The notes under the pieces were generated by a model. The model was not told where the DNA came from. It saw only the letters and a list, made by a program, of their open reading frames with translations, and did not search any database. A stretch of DNA of 64,000 nt from an uncultured Chloroflexia bacterium (GTDB lineage: Bacteria > Chloroflexota > Anaerolineae > CG2-30-64-16). The stretch is taken from assembly GCA_963810095.1 (NCBI GenBank), contig CAWEMM010000002.1, forward strand, positions 32,001-96,000, read 5' to 3'. Both the position numbers and the translations under genes were made by a program. Below, in pieces: positions 17,481 to 29,514 of the stretch. Position 1 is the first letter of the stretch. Every line of letters begins with the position of its first letter.

Positions 17481-18472
17481 ATGACTGCGCAATCGACCAC
17501 CGGGAATAAGTCCTTCGTCATTCCGACGACGATCACCCGCCCACCGCGATCACTATGGGGCGACGCCTGGCACCGGCTTGCCAAGAATAAGGCCGCGATC
17601 GCGGGCGCGGTCGTGATCATCATCTTCGGGTTTATCGCGATCTTTGCGCCGTTGCTGGCGCCCCACAGCCCCTTGCAGATCTACCCGGGCAGCCGTTACC
17701 TGCCTCCCGCCTGGGAGACCTCCGGTCCCACAGGCAAACCCGGTAGCTCCCAGTTCCTGCTGGGCACAGACAGCATCGGCCGCGATGTGTTTAGCCGCCT
17801 GCTCTATGGTGCCGCGTGTCCATGGTGGTCGGCCTGGTGCCAACCATCATCATCCTGGTCCTGGGCATTTCGATGGGCCTGATTGCGGGTTTTGCAGGTG
17901 GCGGACTCGACAACCTGCTGATGCGTATCACCGACATCATCTACGCGTTCCCCGACCTCCTTTTCTTCGTCATCGTGATGGCAGCTCTGCGTGAAACGGC
18001 CATCGGCCAGGCGCTAAACGGTTTGCTGCTGCTCTTCGTGGCGTTGTCGATCGTCAGCTGGGTGGGTTTGGCCCGTCTTGTGCGTGGGTCCGCGCTCTCG
18101 CTCAAACAAAAGGAGTTTGTCGAGGCGGGCAAGATGATCGGCGCGCCGAGCAGCCGTATCATGCTGAAGCACTTGCTGCCGAACAGCCTCGGGCCGATCA
18201 TCGTCTTCACGGCATTCCTTATCCCGCGGATGATCATCACCGAGGCGATTCTCGGCTACCTGGGCTTGGGCCTCAGACCCTCCACCGACCCCAGTGCACC
18301 GTTTATCACCAGCTGGGGCTCCTTGCTGCTGGACGGTCAATCCGCGATCAACGCGCAGCCCTGGCTGCTGCTGGCGCCGGCGCTCTGCGTAGCGCTCGTC
18401 GTGTTGGCCTTCAACTACCTCGGCGACGGTTTGCGCGACGCGCTTGATCCGCGCCTGGCGGGCACCGAATAG
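17481..18472 (+). CDS. oppC: Oligopeptide ABC permease OppC (frameshift ~17812)
   Basis: SLWGDAWHRL, LLGTDSIGRDVFSRLLYGA, then FVEAGKMIGA and GDGLRDALDPR. Confidence 0.9.
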
Positions 18473-18493
18473 CGCAACCGGTTCAATGAAGAT

Positions 18494-18537
18494 AAAACAG
18501 GCCCCGTGGCTGACAGTGTCACGGGGCCTGTTGTTTA
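18494..18537. terminator. Bidirectional intrinsic terminator
   Basis: AACAGGCCCCGTG...CACGGGGCCTGTT flanked by A and T runs, between convergent genes. Confidence 0.85.
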
Positions 18538-18559
18538 ATAGAATGAGATACGAAGAGTG

Positions 18560-19744
18560 CTAGCGCCCGTCCTTCGAGTTGCGTGCCGGTGCCGATTTGC
18601 GCCACGCACGCAGCGCGTCGCGCAGGTCTACCCCCGTTGACGGCTGTGCCCCCGCACGGAGCGAACGGATATACTCGACAAGTGTGTGCGGCGCTTCGCT
18701 CGTGGGCGAGGGCTTGATGGTCGGGCTGGGCTCGGGGGTGTGCGTGACCCGGCGGGTGCGCGTGGGCAACGGAATCACCGGCGTCGCGCTCGCCTCCGGC
18801 GTTTCCGTCAGCGTGGGTCGAGGCGTCTGCGACGGCTGGCCGGTCTTCGTGGCTCCGGGCGTCGAGCTGGGCTGCACCGTGGCCGTCTTCGTGGGCTCAG
18901 GCGTTTCGCTCGGCGATACTGTCCGCGTCAGCGTAGGCTTTACGCGGGTGGCGGTCGGCGCGACGGGCGCGGTCGAGGTAGCCGAAGGCATCACCGTCGG
19001 CGCACGCGGGGTTGCAGTTGGCGGCGCGGGTGCGGCCGGTGTTGCCGTAGGTTCCGGCGGACTTGCGACCGTGGGGCTGGCGGGCAGCCCGCTGACCGGC
19101 GTCACGGCTCGGGTGGGCCCGTTGCTGCTCGTGGGCTTGGCGCGGGTCGCGGTGGGGGCAGGCTGCTGGGTCTCCAGGAGATCCTCGACCGTCCGCGTCC
19201 AGAAGATCGCCCGGTCGAAAGCGTCCGTCGGCTCGGGCGTGCTGCGCCACCGGATCGTCGGGCTGGGCGCGGGGGTCGCAACCACGAAAACCGTGGCCCG
19301 CTCCTCAAATGTGGGCGAAGGTGAGGCCGTCCGCGTGGACGTCGTCAGCACGGCCGGAACGGCGGTGGCGGTCAGGCCCGGCCGGTTCGTCGGCCGCAGC
19401 GGGCTAATCGGCGACGCGAAGTAAGTCGTGCCCGCCAGCAGCATTAAGGCGACACCGGCCCCCACCTGGCGCCAGATGGGCGGCACGAGGAAGCGCCGCC
19501 GCGCCCTTTGCTCGGCCAGGGCAGCGTGCATCCGTTCGCGCCCGGCAACCCGGGCGGCCATCGATAGTGTCGGCCACCGAGATGTGCGCAGGCGGTACGC
19601 GGTTTCGAGAAGCGGAGCAAGCTCCGTTTCGTACTGCGGGTATCGGTCCAGAACCTGGAGCGGGGTAAGCCCATCCTCGATGTCTTCGAGGGCCTGGCCC
19701 AGCGCTTCGTCCAGGGAGCGAGCCGCGCGCGGCGAAGGGGTCAC
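18560..19744 (-). CDS. Putative anti-sigma factor; single TM segment and long Pro/Thr-rich tail
   Basis: GTGA overlap with the sigma gene; N-terminal 'LDRYPQYETELAPLLETA' helical domain, one TM segment, PT-rich low-complexity region. Confidence 0.7.
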   Translation of the reverse strand: MTPSPRAARSLDEALGQALEDIEDGLTPLQVLDRYPQYETELAPLLETAYRLRTSRWPTLSMAARVAGRERMHAALAEQRARRRFLVPPIWRQVGAGVALMLLAGTTYFASPISPLRPTNRPGLTATAVPAVLTTSTRTASPSPTFEERATVFVVATPAPSPTIRWRSTPEPTDAFDRAIFWTRTVEDLLETQQPAPTATRAKPTSSNGPTRAVTPVSGLPASPTVASPPEPTATPAAPAPPTATPRAPTVMPSATSTAPVAPTATRVKPTLTRTVSPSETPEPTKTATVQPSSTPGATKTGQPSQTPRPTLTETPEASATPVIPLPTRTRRVTHTPEPSPTIKPSPTSEAPHTLVEYIRSLRAGAQPSTGVDLRDALRAWRKSAPARNSKDGR

Positions 19745-20319
19745 CGAATGGCCTCCATGTCCAGAATGCGACGTAGGTTGGCGATGGCCCGGTGCTGGAG
19801 CGCCTTGATTGCGCCCGTCGTCTTCCCCATGATCTCCGCAACCTCGTTTACACTAAACTCGTCGCCGAAGCGATAAAGGAGCACCGCCTGTTGCTCCGAG
19901 CCCAACTTGCGCATCGCGTCCAACAACTCGCGGCTGTTCTCGGATGCCGCGGTGTGCATGAATGGTTCCGGCCGACGGTCCGCCAGGTTGGGCTGGTCGT
20001 CGATGTCCTGGTGGTCGCGATGCTTCTGCTTGCGGTACTGGTCCGTCAGCAGGTTGCCCGCGACCCGATAGACGAATGCCGAGAACGATGCCACGGGCCG
20101 CGACCCATTCACCTTGAAGCGCGGCAGGTTCTGCAGCAGGCGCACAAAGACATCTGCCGTCAGATCTTCGGCCAGTTCTCGCTGGCCGAGCCGCGCGTAA
20201 AGGTATCTGAAGACGCGATCCGCGTATAGATTGTAGAGCCGATCATAGGCTGCTGACTCGCCTGCTCGTGCTGCTTGCAGCAGTGCGAGCATGTCAGCGT
20301 CGCTGCAGACGTCTTGCAT
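19741..20319 (-). CDS. ECF RNA polymerase sigma factor
   Basis: Region 2 'AEDLTADVFVR', region 4 'FSVNEVAEIMGKTTGAIKALQHRA'. Confidence 0.95.
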   Translation of the reverse strand: MQDVCSDADMLALLQAARAGESAAYDRLYNLYADRVFRYLYARLGQRELAEDLTADVFVRLLQNLPRFKVNGSRPVASFSAFVYRVAGNLLTDQYRKQKHRDHQDIDDQPNLADRRPEPFMHTAASENSRELLDAMRKLGSEQQAVLLYRFGDEFSVNEVAEIMGKTTGAIKALQHRAIANLRRILDMEAIR

Positions 20320-20432
20320 CGGTTCTCGCTATGGGCAAACGTTCGAAGATATCGAAGGATACGTTCAGGTCTGGCGCCGCATGTTGCCGATTCGCCGGTG
20401 CTGACGGCAAAGGCAGCATGCAGCGCCGGTGG

Positions 20433-21761
20433 TTAAGACGCACTGACACCACTCATGTACTGTTCGATTTGGGGCAGTGCGAGCAGCTTCTCGCGGAAGA
20501 AGTTGTTGACTACATTAATGACACGTTGGCGGGCGGCCTCGGTTTCGGCGCTGAGCGCTTCGCCCGTGGTCTCCTTTGACACCATGTCACGGAGGATGAG
20601 CAGCTGTTTCACGATCTCGCTCTCAGCCGCGCCCTCCAGCACATCGATCACGTCCAGGATCAGTTGGTTGGTCTGGCCCACCACCTGGTCCATCGACATC
20701 GCGCTGTCCGGGTCGCACGCCTCGTCGATGGCCCGCAGCAGGGACCACACCTGGTACAGCAGCGTGGCCGGCTCGTCGAATAGCTCGCGGACGAACGCGG
20801 CTTCTGCGTGGCGGCCGGTGAGGCGGAAGATGTTGTACATCCGCTTTGCGGCTTTGCCGTAGTTGAGATCCTTGGTCAGGTACTTCTTAACCTCATGCTC
20901 CATCAGGGAAACATACTCGTCGAGCGAGTCGGCCGATACGTGGCGCACCAGCTTGGAAAAGATCGGGATGGAGTCTGCGTTGAGATAGACTTCCTGGAAA
21001 TACGGATCCAGGTAACCGTCGAGCGGCGTGATCGAGCCGTCTGGCGCTTCCCACGTCGCATCGAGCACGTTGGAGGCCTTCGCCAGCCGGTTGCGCACGG
21101 GATCGGCGATGAGCCAGTCCAACTTCAGCCAGCCCGGGTCGATGGCCACTTCGTCCCATCGCAGCGTCACCTGCGTGCCGTCGTCGCGCACCCCTTGCAT
21201 TTCGCCGGCGAGCAGCGCCGGGACGTGCCAGGAGAGCGATGTGCCCGCGTTGTAGTGCCAGCCGCGTGCGGTCACATTGAACGGCGCGCACCCGAACCGC
21301 ACCTCGACCAACTGGTACGTGGGCCCTTTGATCGTGTTGAGGGCTTTTTCGCGGATGACCTCGGCCAGAATCCGGCACGCTTCTTCCTTCGTCGCCGCCC
21401 GCACGTTCACCCGCTCGAAGTAGTCGCAATCGCCGGGGTAGGTTTGGATTTTATTCTGGGCGGACGAGCCGGCCAGGGCCAGCGCGGTCTCGACTACGCC
21501 GGGTGTGTCGGGCAACTCGACGATGTGCCCCACCTGGCGGAAATAGGCCAGCTCGCGGGGGTTGAAGTCGAGCATGACGATGCGGTGGCCGAACACGCCG
21601 TCCACGTCGTCGATTTCCACGTCATCATAGGCCTTCCAGGCCGCGATCTTCGTCATCCATTGCAGCGCGTCCGCCTCGTCCATCTCGACGCCCAGGCGCC
21701 GCGCGGATTCCACGATCACACTCAACTGTTCAGCCGGATTTACACGTGGGTCATAACTCAT
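20433..21761 (-). CDS. Hypothetical protein with Pol-beta-like nucleotidyltransferase motif
   Basis: LAGS-x11-DCD motif and possible third Asp in KLDW; GGAGG RBS 6 nt before ATG 21761; helical C-terminus. Confidence 0.7.
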   Translation of the reverse strand: MSYDPRVNPAEQLSVIVESARRLGVEMDEADALQWMTKIAAWKAYDDVEIDDVDGVFGHRIVMLDFNPRELAYFRQVGHIVELPDTPGVVETALALAGSSAQNKIQTYPGDCDYFERVNVRAATKEEACRILAEVIREKALNTIKGPTYQLVEVRFGCAPFNVTARGWHYNAGTSLSWHVPALLAGEMQGVRDDGTQVTLRWDEVAIDPGWLKLDWLIADPVRNRLAKASNVLDATWEAPDGSITPLDGYLDPYFQEVYLNADSIPIFSKLVRHVSADSLDEYVSLMEHEVKKYLTKDLNYGKAAKRMYNIFRLTGRHAEAAFVRELFDEPATLLYQVWSLLRAIDEACDPDSAMSMDQVVGQTNQLILDVIDVLEGAAESEIVKQLLILRDMVSKETTGEALSAETEAARQRVINVVNNFFREKLLALPQIEQYMSGVSAS

Positions 21762-22368
21762 CGTCATCCTCCGTCCGGCCGCGCCCTTGTGGTGCGAGGG
21801 CGGGCGATGTCAGGGGTAGGGTGGCTTCTTCGAGCATGGCGCTCATCAGGCTGGCTTGATCGATGGCGTCGGCAAGGGCGTTGTGCGTCAGCGACGGCGG
21901 GCCCCCGAAGTGGGCGGCGACGTGCTTGAGTGAGGTCTCCGTCCATCGGGCGCCTGTTCTGCCGGCATAAAACGACTTGATGTCGAGTGCGTTGTGGCCG
22001 AAGGGGTTGTAACCCAGGAATCGATGAAAGTAATCGTTGATGAACATCCAGTCGAACGGCGCATTGAATCCTACGAACACGGGCGGCCGGCCCGCGGGCG
22101 CCACGGTCTGCAGCCAGCCTGCAAAATCCAGCATGGCTTCGGCCGGCGGCAGCCCCTCCTCCGTCAGCCGTTCGAGATCCAGCCCCGTGACTGCGAGCGC
22201 ATCGGGTACGACGTCGGGGCTCAGCGGCTGGAGTTCCACGTAGAACGTCAGCGATGGATCTGCGACGACGCACGCGCCAATTGAAAGCAGAGAATAGCGG
22301 CCGGGGTACGGCCCTGCAGTCTCTACGTCGACGGAAATGAGGAAATCGTCCGGTGTCTTCATCAGCAA
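21751..22368 (-). CDS. DEDDh (DnaQ-like) 3'-5' exonuclease
   Basis: ExoI SVDVET, ExoII GFNAPFD, ExoIII HNALADA. Confidence 0.9.
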   Translation of the reverse strand: MLMKTPDDFLISVDVETAGPYPGRYSLLSIGACVVADPSLTFYVELQPLSPDVVPDALAVTGLDLERLTEEGLPPAEAMLDFAGWLQTVAPAGRPPVFVGFNAPFDWMFINDYFHRFLGYNPFGHNALDIKSFYAGRTGARWTETSLKHVAAHFGGPPSLTHNALADAIDQASLMSAMLEEATLPLTSPALAPQGRGRTEDDDEL

Positions 22369-22392
22369 GAGCGACGTAAAGGCCGCTCACGT

Positions 22393-22420
22393 ATTATAAC
22401 CGGAGTCGGGTGATTCGCAA
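22393..22420 (-). promoter_or_regulatory. Sigma70-type promoter upstream of the exonuclease gene
   Basis: Minus strand TTGCGA, 16-nt spacer, TATAAT. Confidence 0.6.
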
Positions 22421-22485
22421 AGGTTGCGCGCGGTCGTTAGTTTATTTGGTCACGAAGGGGAGGAACACATTTTATTTTAGCGGAC

Positions 22486-22524
22486 ACGAGCAAACCCGTC
22501 TCCGCCGGAGACGGGTTTGCTCGT
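22486..22524 (-). terminator. Strong hairpin after the FAD oxidoreductase gene
   Basis: 18-bp perfect stem ACGAGCAAACCCGTCTCC/GGAGACGGGTTTGCTCGT with a 3-nt loop. Confidence 0.7.
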
Positions 22525-22528
22525 CTGC

Positions 22529-23728
22529 TTACTTCAGTTTCTCCATGCCCTTGAACTCGCGGTAGGGTGACAAGATCGCAAGCGTTTCCCTGTCGTCCTC
22601 CGTCATGCGCCGCTGCACCATGCGCGTGAGCAGCTCACCTAGCCCCGGCCCGAGCATGAAGCCCTGGCCGCACATGCCCACGGCCTGGATAAACCCCTCG
22701 ACCTCGCGCGCCCAGCCGACCAGGGGCGAGCCGTCCGGCGTCATCGGGTAGAGCCCACGCCAGGTGCGCCGCACCCGGATATTGGCCAACCGGGGCATCA
22801 GGTCGATCATACGCCGGCTGATGGTGGGCAGGAAGTCGCTGGTCTCGCGCTTGTCCGTGCCCCAAATGCTGGGACTGGGCGTGATGCAGAAGATGATCTG
22901 CCCGGTGTAGTGCTGGTAGAAGTAGTAGTTCGTCGAGCCGGGCGCGGGCCGGATGTCGACGACCATGGGGTTGAGGAAGCGCCCGACGGGTTCCGTGATG
23001 GCGGCTTCGTGCGAGTCGGGGCGGACCGGCGCAGACAGCCCGACGAGCCGGGCTACTTCGTCTGCCTCGGCGCCCGCAGCATTGATGACCACGTCCGCAC
23101 CGTACCGGCCGTGCGGGGTCTGAACGCCCACGACCTTGCCGCCTTCCACGTCGATAGCGGTAAGCGGCTCGTTGAAGCGGAACTCCGCCCCGCAGGCCCG
23201 GGCGTGATCGTAGAACGCATGCAGCGTCAGCAGCGTCGAGCAGTGGCCGTCGTCGGGCGAAAAGGTACCGCCGGTCAGGTGCGAGTCGTCCCGCGATTCG
23301 CGGTTCAGGTCCGGCAGCAGGTCGAGCATCTGCTCGCGGTCCAGCCAGTCGATGTTGAGCCCGTACTGCTGCTGCACGACCAACAGCTCTTTGAGGATCC
23401 GCTCCTCCCGCTCGCGGTAAGCCACGAACACATAGCCGCCGGTGTTCCACTCGATATCGTCGCCGTAGACCTGGCGCCACGACTTGAGGATTTCGAGCGT
23501 GCGGAGGTTCAGCCGGATCTTGGCCGGGTCGGAGTGGGTGGCGCGCACCCCGCCGATCGCCGCCTTGTTGGAACCCTGGCCCGGGCTCGGCCGGCCGTCG
23601 AGCACGAGGGTGCGGACGCCGGCACTGGCGAGAGCGAAGGCAGTGGGAACGCCGACGCTTCCCGCCCCCGCAATGATCACGTCGTAGTGTTTTGGCGTCT
23701 GCGCGGCCGTCAGCGTCGCTGCGTTCAT
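22529..23728 (-). CDS. FAD-dependent oxidoreductase, DAO family (sarcosine oxidase beta / dye-linked L-proline dehydrogenase beta-like)
   Basis: IAGAGSVG Rossmann motif, WRGLYPMTPDGSPLVG, GMCGQGFMLGP. Confidence 0.88.
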   Translation of the reverse strand: MNAATLTAAQTPKHYDVIIAGAGSVGVPTAFALASAGVRTLVLDGRPSPGQGSNKAAIGGVRATHSDPAKIRLNLRTLEILKSWRQVYGDDIEWNTGGYVFVAYREREERILKELLVVQQQYGLNIDWLDREQMLDLLPDLNRESRDDSHLTGGTFSPDDGHCSTLLTLHAFYDHARACGAEFRFNEPLTAIDVEGGKVVGVQTPHGRYGADVVINAAGAEADEVARLVGLSAPVRPDSHEAAITEPVGRFLNPMVVDIRPAPGSTNYYFYQHYTGQIIFCITPSPSIWGTDKRETSDFLPTISRRMIDLMPRLANIRVRRTWRGLYPMTPDGSPLVGWAREVEGFIQAVGMCGQGFMLGPGLGELLTRMVQRRMTEDDRETLAILSPYREFKGMEKLK

Positions 23729-25825
23729 CGCTCACCTCCCGTTGCGACGCCGGCAAAGACAGCCAGGGGCACTTCCATGAAGAGCGGGCGCTTTGTGCCG
23801 TCGACAACCTCCGGGTCGGGGATGCCTTCGTCGCGGAACAGGCGGCGGATCAGCGCCGAGCAGGTCTTCGAGCCGCACGAGCCCATCCCGGCCCGCGTGA
23901 CCGCCTTGATCTCGTTCACGTCGCGGTAGCCCTTGCGAATCAGCGTCCGGATCTCGCCGGCCGTAACCCGCTCGCAGCGGCAAACGACCACGTCGTCGGT
24001 CAGCCGCTCGACATAGTGGTCCATCGGCTCGGCCACCCACTCTTCCTGCACCTGGATGCCGGCGATCCGCTTCGCGACCGCGGCCGGCGCCTTCACCTGC
24101 ACCAGGACCGTCCGGTCATTGGCCTTGGCCGCCCGCACCCGGCTCACTTCCACGTTCCCCAACGCCTCGCCTGCAACGTCGAGCACGGTCACGCGTGTCG
24201 CCCGGCTTGATCGTCTCGCGCAGGAACTCGTAGGGGATCGTGACCGTGGGCGCGGCCGCATCCTTGCGGTAGTCCACCAAGCGTGATCGCCAGGCCAGGG
24301 CAGACGGTTACACACTTCTCGCACCCGATGCAGCGCTTGCCGAGCTGCTCGGCGATGAACTGCGGCACGTTTCGGATGTCGTTCTCGTCGATGAAGATGG
24401 CGCCCTGCGAGCAGACCGACGTGCACGGGTTGCACGGGATTTCCTGCTGGCAGTGGAATACGGGGAAAACATCCTCCTGTTTCCGCCGGAATGACCTCGG
24501 GCGCCACCTTGCCCGGCTTCGAGCGCAGGATTTCGGCCGTGCGGTACCAGTCGGGTGGGATTTGGTCCACGTCTAGGCCGAGCGCCCGGGCGATCTCCAG
24601 CCCCTTGATCTTGCCCGAGAACATGGCTGCAGACGCCTCGGCGATTTCTTCCGCATCCCCGGCCGCAAAGGCCGTCAGCCCGAAAGCCTGCGCCTTGGAA
24701 AAGAACTCGTCGACCGGATCGAGTCCCACTGCAATGAGCACGGTGTCGCACGCAAAGGACTTCTCGGTCCCGTGGATGGGGCGGAACTTCTCGTCCACCT
24801 GTGCGACGGTCACGGACTCGACACCGTCCGTCGCCGTTGGCGCTCAGGATGGTGTGCGACGTGTAGATGGGGACGCCCATGCGGTGCAGCTTGTCCTTGT
24901 GCACCTTGTAGCCGCCGCACTCGGGCAGCGCCTCGACCAGCCCCACCACCTGGATGCCCGCCTGGAGCGCGTGGTAGCCGGCGATCAGGCCGACATTGCC
25001 CCCGCCGACGATGAACAGCCGCTCGGCCGCCCGGACCAGGTCGCGATTGACCAGTGTCTGGAACGCGCCCGCCCCGTAGACGCCCGGCAAGGTGTTGCCG
25101 CGGAACGCCAGCGATTTCTCCCGCGCGCCCGCAGCCACCAACAACACCTGCGGCTTGACCAGTGCATACTGGTTACCACCCTTGAGCACGCCTACCTTGC
25201 GGTCGCTGAACACCGCCAGCGCCGTGCTGTTTAGCCAGACGTCGACTTCGGGGAGATCCCGTACCTGGGCTTCGAGCTTCGTCGCAATGTCGATGCCCCG
25301 CGTCCCGGCGTAGACGGCGTTGATCGACCCGAAGAAACGGTGCGTCTGCAGCACCAGCTTGCCGCCGAGGCGGTCTTTATCGTCGATCAGCAGGCAGCGG
25401 ACGCCGCGCTGGCCCAGTTGGATGGCCGCCGACATGCCGGCTGGCCCGCCGCCGATGATGAGCACGGGGACGTCGATTTCTTCGATCTCGCGCATTTCCG
25501 GCGCTGTGGCGACCTTGGGCAACTCGGGCAGCCGGTCTACCGGCTCGACCCGCATGCCGTCCGTGACCGGGGTCATGCACGATTTGACCGGCATGCCGTC
25601 GGCCAACACGAGACACTGGGCACACTGGCCGTTGGCACAGAAAATGCCTTGTGGTGAGCCATCCTTGGGATGATGTCCGAAGACCCGAACGCCATTCGCG
25701 AAGAGGGCGGAGGCGATGTTTTCGCCGGCGAGCGCTGCGAGTGCCTCGCCGTGCCAGAAAAATGTTACGCTCGGACGCGGCGCTGAAGACAAGATGGGGT
25801 GGGCTGAAATCCGATACTCGGCCAT
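23725..25825 (-). CDS. Sarcosine oxidase / proline dehydrogenase alpha-like multidomain Fe-S flavoprotein (several frameshifts)
   Basis: N-terminal FCANGQCAQC 2Fe-2S motif, GGGPAG and GGGNVG dinucleotide motifs, CNPCTSVC/CIGCEKCVTVCP ferredoxin motifs in shifted frames, C-terminal VCRCERV...CGSKTC BFD-like motif. Confidence 0.82.
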
Positions 25826-26030
25826 TGGCTCTCCTTTGAACCTGGAGGTACAAGTACGTTATATCACCGCGGGGCAGGAGCGTCTATGACCTCGCGCAGC
25901 TATGCGGCGGGCCGGCCCAGGCCGCAGGCCGGGGTGGACGAGGCGGATGGATCGGATCAGCGCCGGCAGGAACCGCCACGGTCGGCCGCATCCGCGTTCA
26001 TCTGGGTTGTATTCCGGCGCCGGGCGCCTC

Positions 26031-26051
26031 TGTGCTATACTCGGCCGCATG
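26031..26051 (+). promoter_or_regulatory. Extended -10 promoter, probably leaderless
   Basis: TGTGCTATACT ends 7 nt before ATG 26049; no SD sequence. Confidence 0.6.
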
Positions 26052-29000
26052 AAAATCGTCGCTGACCTCCACATCCACTCCCATTACTCCCGGGCTACGA
26101 GTAAGAACCTCACTTTCGAACACCTGGCGCGCTGGGCGCAGCTGAAGGGCGTCCAGGTCGTCGGTACGGGCGACATTGGGCATCCCGGCTGGTTGCAGGA
26201 GATGCGCGACAAGCTCGTGCCGGCCGAGCCAGGGCTTTACCGCTTGAAGGACGAGTACGCGCATGAGGTGCAGCGGACCGTGCCGCCGGCGTGCCAGGGC
26301 ATCGTGCGGTTCCTGCTCGGCGGTGAGATCAGCAATATCTACAAGAAGGCGGGCGCCGACGGGCAGCCCCGCACGCGCAAGGTCCACAACGTCGTCTTTG
26401 CACCCGACCTCGACGCGGTAGCAGCTCTGCAAGCCCGGCTCGAAAAGATCGGCAACATCCGCTCGGACGGCCGCCCGATCTTGGGGCTCGACTCGCGCGA
26501 CCTGCTCGAAACGCTGCTCGAGGTCGACCCCGCTTGCCACCTGATCCCCGCGCACATCTGGACGCCGTGGTTCTCGCTGCTCGGGTCGAAGTCGGGCTTC
26601 GACCGCGTCGACGAATGTTTCGGCGACCTGACCTCTCACATCTTTGCGGTTGAGACCGGCCTGTCCTCAGATCCCCCGATGAACTGGCGCGTGTCGCAGC
26701 TCGATCGCTACACGCTTGTGTCCAATTCCGATGCGCATTCGCCGGAGAAGCTCGCACGCGAGGCGACGCTTTTCGACACGGAGTTGTCCTACCCGGCCAT
26801 CTTTGGCGCGCTTCAGACCGGCGACCCAGGCACCTACCGCGGCACGGTCGAGTTCTTCCCCGAGGAAGGGAAGTACCATCTGGACGGCCACCGGGCGTGC
26901 GGGATCGTGTGGGAGCCGGCGACGACGCGCGAGCACGGCGGCGCTTGCCCGGTCTGCGGCAAGGAAGTGACGATCGGGGTCATGCACCGTGTCGAAGAGC
27001 TTGCCGACCGCCCAGCGGGACGAGCGCCCTTGCGAACCTACCCCTTCAACAGTCTCATCCCGCTCGCGGAAGTTCTTGGCGAAGTGTTGGGCGTCGGCGC
27101 AGGCTCGGGGCGGGTGGAGCAGGAGATGCAGAAGCTGCTGGCCCGGCTCGGACCAGAGCTCGCATATCCTCCGAGAGGCCGGGCTCGAAGAGATCCGCCG
27201 GGCCGGTGGCGACCGGCTGGCCGAAGGTATTGAGCGTATGCGGCGGGGCGAGGTCGACGCGCAGGCGGGCTACGACGGCGAGTACGGGGCCATTCGTCTG
27301 TTCACCGCACGAGCCGCCGGCCATACGGTGCAGGGCGGCCTGTTCGCCGAAATCGAGACCCATGCCGGTCGGGCCTGAGCCCGCGGAGCCCGGCGCTCCT
27401 GTGCAAGCCCCGGCAGCGCCAGACGCCGACACGGCGCAGGAGGAGACCGCAGTCGGAGATGGGTGGCAGGCGTCGTTCTTCGACCTCGACGCCGGTTTGG
27501 AGCCGGAAGCGCCGGTCGCAGGGTCAGGCGGCTTCACCGTGCCCGTTGCGGCCCTGCTGGGCGGCCTGAACGAGGCACAGCGCGAGGCGGTGCAGTGCGT
27601 GGACCGCTCTGTCGTCATCTCGGCCGGCCCGGGCACCGGCAAAACCCGCACGCTCACCCACCGTATCGCTTTCCTCGTGCTGCAGCAAGGCGTTGCGCCC
27701 GAATCGATCCTGGCCATTACGTTTACGAACAAGGCGGCCGAGGAGATGGCCGAGCGGCTCGCCGCGCTGCTGGGCAAGCGCAGCGCCGGCATCACGGTCA
27801 AGACCTTCCATGCGTTCGGCGCATCCCTGCTGCGTGAGTACGGGCGGCTGCTCGGCATTGATCCGCGATTTCGTCATTTGCAGCGAAGAAGATCGAGGCG
27901 TGCTCCTGCGCTGGGCCTGCCCCCACTTGTCCCAGTCCGAGCTCCAAGCGACGCTCGACGCGATCGGCGAGGCGAAGAACCAACTGCTAAGGCCCGAGGA
28001 ACTGGAGCCGGAGCCGGCGGCCCGGTACTGCGGCGTACGAAACCGCGTTGGCGGGCAGTCATGCGCTGGATTTCGACGACCTGGTCGCCAAATGCGTGCG
28101 GCTGCTGGAAACCTGTCCTGACGTGTTGGCGGCCGTCCGGGCGCGCTACCGCTGGCTCTCCGTGGACGAGTACCAGGACGTCAACGCGGCGCAGGTGCGC
28201 CTGCTGGCGCTGCTGGCCCAGGGCGGGGCGAATCTGTGCGTCATTGGCGACCCCGACCAGGCCATCTACGGCTTTCGGGGCTCGGACCGCGGCTACTTCC
28301 TCGCCTTTCAGCAGGAGCATCCCGAAGCGGCAGCGCTGCATCTCTCGGAGAACTACCGATCGACGCAGGTGATCCTCGACGCGGCCGTGCAGGTCATCTC
28401 GGGTGAGACCGAGCACGTCTGGGCCGCGCGACCTGCGGGCGGTTCAGGCGTTTGCGGATTTCGCCGACCAGGTCAAGCTGGACGTCTACCACGGGCCCAC
28501 GGACCGCGCCGAGGCCGAGTACGTCGTGCACCAAATTGAGCAGATGGTGGGCGGCACCAGCTATTTCTCGCTGGACTCGGGCCGCGCCGCCGGCGACGTG
28601 CCCGAAATATCGCGGTCGTTCGCCGACTTTGCGGTGCTCTACCGGCTTGGAAGCCAGAGCCGGCTGCTGATCGAGGCGTTCGATCGTTCCGGCATTCCGT
28701 ATCAGACGGTCGGGCACGCGCCCTTGCACACGGAGCCGGACGTGCGCGCAGTTCTCGCTCACCTGTGGCTCCTGCAAAACCCGCTTTCGCGGCTGCACTG
28801 GCTTGCCGTGCTCGATGCCTCAAAGACGAGCGGCGCACCGGCCGCCGCCGACCGCATCCTGGCCCGTCTCGAAAGGGAGGAGAGCGGCAGGCGATCGTTG
28901 AGCCGTGCCCTGGCCGACGTGGCGAGCGATGCAGGCAGAGGCGCCGATGGGCAGCTCTTGCGGCTCAGCAAGCTCTATGGCGAGCTGCAGGGCCGGAGCA

Positions 29001-29514
29001 GCGTGACGCGGGCCGTCGAGCGGGTCTGGCAGTACCTGCAGGCCGAGCGGCCGGGGTTCGAGGCTCGGCACACGTCGACCAACTGCTGCGCCTGGCCGGC
29101 CCCTTCGGTGATGGCCTGCGCGACTTCCTCCTGGCCCTGGTGCTGCGCGCCGAGACCGACGCCTACGATCCCCGGGCCGACCGCGTGACGCTGATGACGC
29201 TGCATGCGGCGAAGGGGCTGGAGTTCCCCGTGGTCTTTATGGTGGGCTGCGAGGAAGGCTTGCTGCCCTACAGTCGCAAGGGCGAAACGCCGGACGTCGA
29301 CGAAGAGCGGCGACTGTTCTACGTGGGCATGACCCGGGCGGAGCAGAAACTGGTGCTTTGCCATGCCCGCAAGCGGTGGCTCTTCGGGCAAGCGATGGAG
29401 AACCCGGCGTCGCGCTTCCTCGACGATATCGAGGCAGCGCTCAAGGTGCTCAAGCAGATGGAGGCGCGGCGCAGAGAGCCCAAAGAGGGGCCTTCACAAC
29501 TGGCGTTGTTCTAG
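26049..29514 (+). CDS. Endonuclease Q-like PHP domain fused to UvrD/PcrA-family helicase (about 6 frameshifts)
   Basis: ADLHIHSHYS, PAHIWTPWF, SNSDAHS, YHLDGHRAC..CPVCG, GYDGEYG; then LNEAQ, AGPGTGKT, TFTNKAA, VDEYQD, GDPDQAIYGFRG, ENYRS, TLHAAKGLEF, EERRLFYVGMTRA. Confidence 0.85.

Follow-up and report, generated by a model that had tools for sequence, protein, structure and literature searches.

What would a cell do with a nucleotide-joining enzyme and an exonuclease that are encoded by overlapping genes? The question is raised by a locus of an uncultured Chloroflexia bacterium, found in a 64,000-nt stretch of contig CAWEMM010000002.1 (positions 32,001 to 96,000), which we refer to throughout as the window. 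The first gene encodes a DEDDh exonuclease, and the second a 442-residue protein that carries the motif of the Pol-beta nucleotidyltransferases (hereafter, the NTase). The reading that we favour, with somewhat less than even confidence, is that the NTase joins nucleotides and that its product or an intermediate, possibly 2'-5'-linked, is degraded by the exonuclease. Four observations carry this reading, namely the one-sided dependence of the exonuclease on the NTase, the natural fusions of the two proteins, their co-occurrence when the genes are unlinked, and the known family of the exonuclease; together they argue that the exonuclease would act on the NTase product. The catalytic activity of the NTase, the nature and linkage of its product and the role of the exonuclease are all matters that we infer.

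The exonuclease and its tie to the nucleotidyltransferase

By sequence, the window exonuclease is placed in the Cap18/CBASS Exo family (CBASS, cyclic oligonucleotide-based antiphage signalling system). It matches the Pfam family RNase_T weakly (E 2.4e-6) and also a Rv2179c-like exoribonuclease model, while its match to the PADLOC model PDLC00753 (an "Effector" of the Exonuclease type, CBASS) has an E value of 8.6e-68 and is full-length, with residues 4-181 falling on profile positions 2-179 of 184. The PDB chain 7t2s_A, which we take to be Cap18 of E. coli upec-117, is matched over residues 3-176 with an E value of 2e-49, versus 0.003-0.008 for RNase T and Cas2-DEDDh entries. The DEDDh residues (D12, E14, D104, H160 and D165) are invariant in 33 NTase-linked exonucleases, as are P18 and F121, by position the pocket Pro and the dimer-contributed Phe, and N100 is nearly so. 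A first-pass annotation of the window, made from its letters alone, had called this protein a DEDDh exonuclease, and that call stands. It had also left the pair without a named family, which now applies to the NTase only, since the NTase sequence matches none.

The exonuclease is 46-56% identical (tblastn) to plasmid genes annotated "3'-5' exonuclease", including a type II CBASS exonuclease of P. aeruginosa (55.7%) and a type III one of Enterobacter (50.3%). Four of the eight contexts of such plasmid relatives that were opened are CBASS operons by annotation. In P. aeruginosa and P. syringae, the neighbours are a nucleotidyltransferase, a ThiF-type E1 and an MPN/JAB protein, with a SAVED protein as well in P. 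syringae; one unannotated K. pneumoniae operon has the same layout. The Enterobacter context (MTA/SAH nucleosidase, WYL protein, "CBASS oligonucleotide cyclase", two further genes, exonuclease) has the upec-117 layout, and a Bradyrhizobium context looks CBASS-like and carries no CBASS annotation. The stretches read around the relatives in another K. pneumoniae, in Acinetobacter and in Chondrinema hold no CBASS genes. Likewise, no CBASS gene was found in the window, and the bacterium's own genome (6.1 Mb, 88.5% complete) has no SMODS match and a single copy of the exonuclease. A PADLOC run, proposed in the first-pass annotation, recognises the exonuclease only, and the pair is therefore not a known defence system.

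A quick maximum-likelihood tree was built from 47 exonuclease sequences, with support given only by the Shimodaira-Hasegawa-like approximate likelihood ratio test (SH-aLRT). In it, the main NTase-linked group (31 rows, SH-aLRT 93) neighbours the plasmid/CBASS clade (7 rows, 92) on short branches. The two clades are ~0.35 apart, and the branch to the other DEDDh enzymes measures 4.3. The exonucleases that accompany the most divergent NTases, along with the two fusions described below, branch at the base without resolution.

For CBASS Exo proteins, upec-117 Cap18 included, a preprint (10.1101/2025.03.04.641389) reports no DNA or RNA nuclease activity; three members are described there as cleaving the 2'-5'-linked dinucleotide intermediates of cGAS-like cyclases, and also 2'-5'-linked oligoadenylate (2-5A). 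In the same text, catalysis uses D9, E11, D101, H157 and D162, the pocket is shaped by P15, V55, N97 and F120, and Exo is found in ~4% of CBASS operons. The window residues D12, E14, P18, V58, N100, D104, F121, H160 and D165 appear to match the residues named in the preprint for VcExo and SmExo, by position and not by alignment; D12, P18 and V58 carry the SmExo numbers.

Linkage of the two genes was followed in two sets of loci. The first set comprises the 80 best genome loci of the NTase, all from Chloroflexota metagenome-assembled genomes by title, and the exonuclease lies directly upstream on the same strand in 59 of them (3 of the 59 being partial). In the remainder, 19 loci are without it, one has a distant DEDDh gene on the other strand and one a 39-residue remnant; locus L034 comes without upstream DNA. 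The second set was drawn from metagenome contigs scanned with an alignment of divergent members, and its NTases are 38-67% identical to that of the window. Here the exonuclease is directly upstream in 15, and somewhere in 20, of the 65 loci whose upstream DNA extends for 650 nt or more, and it also occurs at five loci with less. The least window-like NTases (39-44% identity; L082, L083, L084 and L086) are among those with the exonuclease. Over all 160 loci, the exonuclease cluster is present at 83 (3 of them with the distant DEDDh only), and is directly upstream on the same strand at 75. Conservation of the neighbourhood had been named at the outset as a check on the pairing, and these counts bear the pairing out, as do the fusions and the co-occurrence of unlinked genes.

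The natural fusion at L086:4455-6311 is one 618-residue frame, in which exonuclease residues 1 to ~178 run straight on into the NTase. Long proteins with this exonuclease part were searched for, and the results were P0271 (618 residues, 3 member sequences, Joint Genome Institute), which is the L086 fusion protein, and P0272 (615 residues), which is 85% identical to it and comes from another source. P0272 aligns with the window exonuclease over residues 7-179 (48% identity) and with the window NTase over residues 181-607 (40%). A structure model of the fusion has a predicted local distance difference test score (pLDDT) of 90.1 and a predicted template modelling score (pTM) of 0.78, which suggests a defined domain arrangement. 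Elsewhere, an NTase homologue 39% identical to that of the window (L087:3444-4763) has an in-frame stop and no exonuclease upstream, and may be a decaying copy.

To describe the distribution of the pair, we use a class sample of 301 genomes, drawn evenly from the class at a completeness of at least 80%; the genomes are related, and the counts are descriptive rather than a statistical test. The NTase is present in 54 of the 301 (18%), corresponding to 34 of 220 high-quality genomes and 41 of 175 genera, which led us to reject it as a class-wide core gene. A strong exonuclease match (E <= 7e-50) is found in 21 genomes (7%), 20 of which have the NTase. When both are present, the genes are adjacent in 12 genomes and lie on different contigs, often mid-contig, in 8; around the unlinked exonucleases, the 36 of 69 called open reading frames (ORFs) that were scanned are ordinary metabolic genes and include no cGAS/DncV-like nucleotidyltransferase (CD-NTase). 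Weaker DEDDh matches (33-40% identity) occur in ten more genomes of the class, six with the NTase and four without. In the phylum sample, 14 of 301 genomes have the NTase, 10 of these in other classes.

Several individual genomes depart from the usual arrangement. The one genome with a strong exonuclease and no NTase (G197, locus L178) has an in-frame TAG in the exonuclease, and nearby on the opposite strand are a DAC (c-di-AMP synthase)-YbbR gene and a histidine phosphatase gene. In G139, where the genes are unlinked, the exonuclease overlaps by 22 nt the end of a gene for a 1219-residue adenylate/guanylate cyclase-STAND ATPase-TPR protein (L175:3330-7585), which suggests another nucleotide-signalling partner. 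G080 and G081 have a second NTase copy, 41-43% identical to that of the window; in G080 the exonuclease, which contains one in-frame TGA, adjoins the divergent copy (41%) and not the main one.

The NTase evolves slowly. Across 105 pairs from 15 loci, its mean pairwise identity is 69.9%, versus 63.1% for the neighbouring fused glycyl-tRNA synthetase GlyQS; the NTase is the more conserved protein in 96% of the pairs, and the two sets of identities are correlated (r 0.91). NTase and exonuclease identities are correlated as well (r 0.62, 400 pairs), and the neighbours of the NTase elsewhere are housekeeping genes (glyQS, nadE, dnaG and rpoD). As judged from sequence comparison, this tempo fits vertical descent with losses under strong constraint, and not an arms-race gene.

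Motifs and fold of the 442-residue protein

The NTase has no match in Pfam (E <= 1), NCBIfam or PADLOC, and the Pfam families PolyA_pol and NTP_transf_2 are accordingly among those that it does not match. Among PDB sequences, too, neither phmmer nor a 38-sequence profile gave a match, and 4ams, 4amq and 4xul are absent from the results at E <= 10. In a protein-atlas search the sole results were Chloroflexota clusters without names and weak viral NTP_transf_2 leads (0.87-0.89). The family comprises more than 5290 proteins at E <= 0.001 (among 8000 scored), in 554 clusters at 50% identity and 521 species genomes, and none of the 120 best listed homologues has a precomputed Pfam domain.

The hGS-x11-DxD motif noticed in the first-pass annotation takes the form G98-S99-x11-D111-x-D113, and is kept in most of 46 diverse family members (G98 in 43; S99, D111 and D113 in 41 each). 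In the AlphaFold model, A97-G98-S99 spans the junction where strand 90-97 ends and helix 98-101 begins, and D111-C-D113-Y is on strand 111-121; the DxD is kept in the fusions and multidomain forms too. Between 43 and 46 of the 46 members keep K303, R307, N310 and R313, which lie in the segment NYGKAAKRMYNIFR. D215, the Asp of the KLDW sequence first put forward as the third catalytic Asp, fares poorly, being present in only 33 of the 46 and replaced by Gly in the natural fusions. Better kept than D215, and better candidates for the third carboxylate, are E153 (E or D in 39), D234 (43), D248 (44) and D252 (43).

Modelling indicates that the NTase is a protein of Pol-beta-like fold belonging to the Mg662/L544 structural family. 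The AlphaFold model, built on a 38-sequence alignment, has a pLDDT of 90.8 and a pTM of 0.87, and its residues 262-441 form helices, in line with the helical C-terminal part expected from the sequence. The top Foldseek matches are 4ams, 4xul and 4amq (E 9e-7 to 6e-5, probability 1.0), the titles of which read [quoted passage not shown] or name Mg662 with GTP. Below these come TENT5/FAM46, MB21D2, cGAS, DncV and OAS1, at E values of only ~0.01-0.1. A search independent of Foldseek gives 4xul_A with Z 21.5 (root mean square deviation 3.4, 303 residues aligned, model residues 66-442), and the next match has Z 7.1. Further down are helical-bundle matches to the C-terminal part beside generic Pol-beta enzymes (Z 5.5-6.2), among which FAM46C, Tailor, Pol mu, PAP, TUT1/7, GLD-2, ClCdnE and CdnG (Z 5.5-6.0) align over residues ~66-257. 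The superfamily assignment made at first pass is thus upheld by the fold, both through Mg662 and through the generic enzymes at Z ~5.5-6. None of the three outcomes that the first-pass annotation had named as refuting (another fold, loss of the motif residues among homologues, homologues unlinked to the exonuclease) was observed.

With Megavirus chilensis Mg662 (4AMS, 4XUL and also 4AMQ) and its giant-virus and virophage look-alikes, the NTase shares the whole two-lobe architecture. It differs from Mg662 in having 65 extra N-terminal residues, and in sequence, where identity in the structural alignments is 10-14% and there is no detectable sequence or profile similarity. Seventeen viral models in BFVD match at E <= 1e-3, including those of Zamilon, a V21 virophage-like protein, a Pithovirus "nucleotidyl transferase" and an "L544-like helical domain" protein. 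A literature search found no paper that describes the function of Mg662 or L544, and we know of no exonuclease partner of the viral Mg662-like proteins. On IMG/VR viral contigs, none of 90 pattern matches was confirmed as a relative of the NTase, in a search bounded by its patterns.

Some family members are longer proteins. P0232 (1291 residues) fuses the NTase domain to AbfB, F-box-associated, C-type-lectin and PLAT domains, and P0181 (1067 residues) to a PQQ-like beta-propeller, in both cases with GS and DxD intact. P0123 (545 residues) has an unassigned 107-residue N-terminal extension.

Gene layout and neighbourhood

The coordinates of the locus are given in Table 1. The most likely start of the NTase is the second ATG of its ORF, judging from the ribosome-binding site 6 nt before it and from the homologues, which are 442 residues long and begin with MSYDP-like sequences. 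The ATG at 22362 is the likely start of the exonuclease, because the alignment with PDB 7t2s begins at MKT. With these starts the genes overlap by 11 nt (21751-21761), the exonuclease stop being the TGA at 21753-21751; the overlap would be 17 nt if the first NTase ATG were used. The overlap of the exonuclease stop with the start of an ORF of ~440 residues, both on the minus strand, was therefore read correctly in the first-pass annotation. Negative exonuclease-to-NTase gaps, as measured to the start of the tblastn alignment, are found at 13 of 75 related loci.

Table 1. Positions of the two genes and of nearby sequence signals in the window
Feature	Positions	Strand	Remarks
DEDDh exonuclease gene	21751..22362	minus	203 aa; ORF 21751-22368 also opens at TTG 22368
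442-aa NTase-like gene	20433..21761	minus	ORF 20433-21767; alternative ATG 21767
GGAGG ribosome-binding site	21768..21772	minus	inside 3' end of exonuclease gene; 6 nt before ATG 21761; read from sequence
Sigma-70-like promoter TTGCGA-16-TATAAT	22393..22420	minus	~30 nt upstream of exonuclease start; 10/12 consensus matches; pattern only
GC-rich perfect hairpin	22490..22520	minus	after upstream FAD-oxidoreductase gene, between that gene and the pair; read from sequence

The promoter of its own with which the pair had been credited is present as a sequence pattern. A scan of the region returned 2 sigma-70-like sites versus 0.6 expected, the two boxes are kept in the close relatives L003 and L004, and TATAAT-type words are the commonest recurrent 7-mers in 73 regions upstream of partner exonucleases. 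Apart from such promoter words, no riboswitch-like conserved element was seen upstream, and an Rfam scan of 18000-24000 found no family. The hairpin has no T-run, which is why it is not listed in the terminator scan.

Around the pair, the window holds an opp-type peptide ABC transporter, nuo genes and oxidoreductases. Immediately behind the NTase gene, at 18560-20319 on the minus strand, are a gene for an extracytoplasmic function (ECF)-type sigma factor (19741-20319, Sigma70_r2 and r4) and, overlapping it by 4 nt, one for a 394-residue Pro/Thr-rich protein without a family match, which is possibly the anti-sigma factor of the adjoining ECF sigma. These genes were rejected as part of the unit, because beyond the five closest loci (L001-L005) they are not found with the pair. 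Two neighbouring regions look frame-split. On the minus strand, ORFs 24308-25825 (Fer2_4 and Pyr_redox_2) and 23725-24813 (BFD-like 2Fe-2S) overlap by ~500 nt; on the plus strand (25902-29188), two ORFs, 26897-28372 and 28403-29188, share a UvrD-type helicase between them, behind an unassigned 443-residue ORF (25902-27233). Both may be frameshifts, assembly indels or pseudogenes.

When the neighbours at the 160 loci are clustered (n=323), only DUF3786 recurs besides the exonuclease. Its gene is directly downstream of the NTase on the same strand at 22 loci (e.g., L057:7356-8045), mostly with the exonuclease upstream. At six loci (L025, L026, L048, L053, L061 and L066, the last at L066:7519-8085), a 2H (LigT-like, PF13563) phosphoesterase gene is directly downstream of the NTase, followed by a gene for a DUF1232 protein. 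The 2H enzymes include 2'-5' phosphodiesterases, and for this reason the gene may be relevant to the pair; the six loci belong to one Anaerolineaceae lineage, and the adjacency is probably a single evolutionary event. Both DUF3786 and the 2H phosphoesterase were rejected as core partners, being cases of lineage-specific synteny.

Possible roles of the pair

In the reading that we favour, the two genes would form one functional unit. The 442-residue protein would be an active Pol-beta-superfamily nucleotidyltransferase of the Mg662/L544 structural family. It would link nucleotides either into a short, non-canonical product or into a linear intermediate that can diffuse; GTP or ATP would be a plausible substrate, and a 2'-5' bond a plausible linkage. 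The Cap18-type exonuclease would hydrolyse that product or intermediate, and so set a threshold or turn the product over, as its CBASS relatives are reported to do with cGAS-like cyclases. Should this clade share the 2'-5' specificity that has been reported, a 2'-5' link would be present in the product or intermediate. The exonuclease would be an optional and dependent partner, which needs the NTase and is not needed by it. The pair would be a chromosomal, vertically inherited module under strong purifying selection, and because of these features its role is probably in cellular signalling or nucleotide metabolism, not in abortive-infection defence. The first-pass annotation had suggested a writer and eraser pair for either RNA 3' tailing or the synthesis and turnover of a nucleotide signal. 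It is the second half of that suggestion that we favour, and the first that we favour less, because the exonuclease is of the Cap18/CBASS Exo family.

Two known systems resemble such an arrangement. The logic is that of OAS and 2-5A with the 2'-5' phosphodiesterases, by analogy a Pol-beta-fold 2'-5' synthase with a dedicated eraser, and Cap18-type Exo degrades 2-5A according to the preprint (10.1101/2025.03.04.641389). For the window NTase the 2'-5' chemistry is conjectural; OAS1 and cGAS match the NTase weakly (Foldseek E ~0.05, TM ~0.2), and the window pair has no RNase L-like receptor. With the CBASS Cap18/Exo proteins of E. coli upec-117 (type III), S. marcescens and V. cholerae, the window exonuclease shares its family, with catalytic residues kept and pocket residues kept by position, and in CBASS, too, Exo is an optional accessory of a Pol-beta-fold nucleotide-joining enzyme. 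Unlike in CBASS, the partner enzyme is not a CD-NTase, and the pair has no effector, Cap2/Cap3, HORMA/TRIP13, CapW or CapH/P. The window family also differs in its housekeeping context and slow vertical evolution, and in its natural fusions, whereas in CBASS, Exo and cGAS are reported not to interact (10.1101/2025.03.04.641389).

A number of observations weigh against this reading. Only 20 of the 54 NTase-bearing genomes of the class have the exonuclease, and this, together with the 15 of 65 metagenome loci, implies that the NTase works without it. The NTase shows no profile similarity to three plasmid CD-NTases (hhalign probability 0.1), and no match to SMODS or to a PADLOC cyclase. Structurally it is no nearer to cGAS and OAS than to tailing enzymes, all of which have Z ~5.5-6, and its third carboxylate has four candidates, E153, D234, D248 and D252. 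The 160 loci show no conserved receptor or effector gene next to the pair, and the fusions to lectin-like and beta-propeller modules misfit a simple signalling role. An earlier study of Cap18 reportedly found a non-specific 3'-5' DNA exonuclease activity. The 2'-5' specificity, carried over to the window by analogy, rests on one preprint, which also states that CBASS Exo did not bind its cyclase (10.1101/2025.03.04.641389).

The main rival is a scheme of tailing and trimming, in which untemplated nucleotides would be put onto an RNA (or DNA) 3' end by the NTase and trimmed by the DEDDh exonuclease. We give it about one chance in four in plain terms, that is, we regard it as unlikely but as the best of the alternatives. 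The textbook systems of this kind are the CCA-adding tRNA nucleotidyltransferase with RNase T in tRNA end turnover, and the TENT/TUTase tailing enzymes with DEDD deadenylases. As in the tRNA system, a Pol-beta NTase and a DEDDh exonuclease would work on the same 3' end, and the structural matches to TENT5/FAM46, Tailor, TUT1, TUT7, GLD-2 and poly(A) polymerase are of similar strength to those of cGAS and OAS. The matches of the exonuclease to RNase_T and to the Rv2179c-like exoribonuclease model, the slow evolution and housekeeping neighbours, which suit RNA metabolism, and the 2H phosphoesterase directly downstream at six loci of one lineage point the same way. However, the exonuclease groups with Cap18/Exo, far from other DEDDh enzymes, and falls outside the RNase T group (2f96 E 0.0046 versus 7t2s 2e-49), and the NTase has neither the head/neck/body architecture of tRNA nucleotidyltransferases nor a PolyA_pol or NTP_transf_2 match. 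Neither an RNA gene nor an Rfam family was found next to the pair, and the patchy spread of the NTase (54/301) would be odd for general RNA maturation. In the preprint, a member of the exonuclease family has no DNA or RNA nuclease activity (10.1101/2025.03.04.641389).

The remaining explanations are less likely than tailing and trimming. The acceptor of the NTase-fold protein might be a protein, lipid, glycan or small molecule, to which it would transfer a nucleotidyl or a phospho-alcohol group in the manner of DrrA, Tam41 or LicD/FKRP-like enzymes; the exonuclease would then have a separate role. Weak structural matches to Tam41 (Z 6.2), DrrA (Z 5.5, 207 residues aligned) and a viral LicD-like model are consistent with this, as are P0232 and P0181, with their AbfB, FBA, lectin, PLAT or PQQ-like modules and intact GS/DxD. 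A separate role sits badly with the in-frame exonuclease-NTase fusions, with the presence of the NTase in 20 of 21 exonuclease genomes even when the genes are unlinked, and with the correlated identities (r 0.62), and we consider this explanation improbable.

Slightly more doubtful still is a minimal or dispersed CBASS-like anti-phage system, in which the NTase would replace the CD-NTase, the exonuclease would regulate it and the effector would be encoded elsewhere. Such a system would account for an exonuclease family otherwise found in CBASS operons, for the patchiness of the NTase across the class and for its viral structural relatives. Against these stand the absence of a cyclase or effector in the PADLOC results here, of a conserved effector in the 160 loci and of defence-island neighbours, as well as an NTase that is slower than GlyRS and tracks it (r 0.91); nor was a relative of the NTase confirmed on IMG/VR viral contigs, in the pattern-limited search. 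Finally, that the NTase-like protein is an inactive nucleotide-binding sensor or scaffold is very improbable: several residues compete as third carboxylate, and the closest solved relative, 4xul, is seen only as a GTP complex (going by the entry title), but GS, D111 and D113 are kept in 41-43 of 46 members, and the dense invariant polar set D248, D252, Q256, K303, R307, N310 and R313 is typical of an active site.

Returning to the reading in which the exonuclease degrades what the NTase makes, a bolder version of it, which we put forward as a speculation with the odds well against it, is that the 442-residue protein founds a large unrecognised bacterial family, with a fold common to the Mg662/L544/V21-like orphans, that makes a 2'-5' or other non-canonical messenger for housekeeping and not for immunity, and that the Cap18-type exonuclease is its dedicated eraser, which CBASS would have borrowed or lent.

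What is new here are the two exonuclease-NTase fusions, the one-sided dependence, the exonuclease tree, the patchy yet slow-evolving NTase and the doubt cast on D215. The NTase belongs to a large family that surpasses a tRNA synthetase in conservation and has no entry in Pfam, NCBIfam or PADLOC. The one partner that regularly goes with it is an exonuclease of a family recently reported to be 2'-5'-specific, which makes a 2'-5' product a testable hypothesis. If the product were an ordinary RNA tail, the pair would be a new but unsurprising module for adding and trimming it. If the hypothesis is true, 2'-5' nucleotide chemistry in bacteria would reach beyond CBASS, and an accessory eraser would be shown to move between unrelated synthases. 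It would also give a first functional lead for the orphan NTases of giant viruses and virophages. The pair thus points to an undescribed pathway in which a nucleotide product is made and broken.

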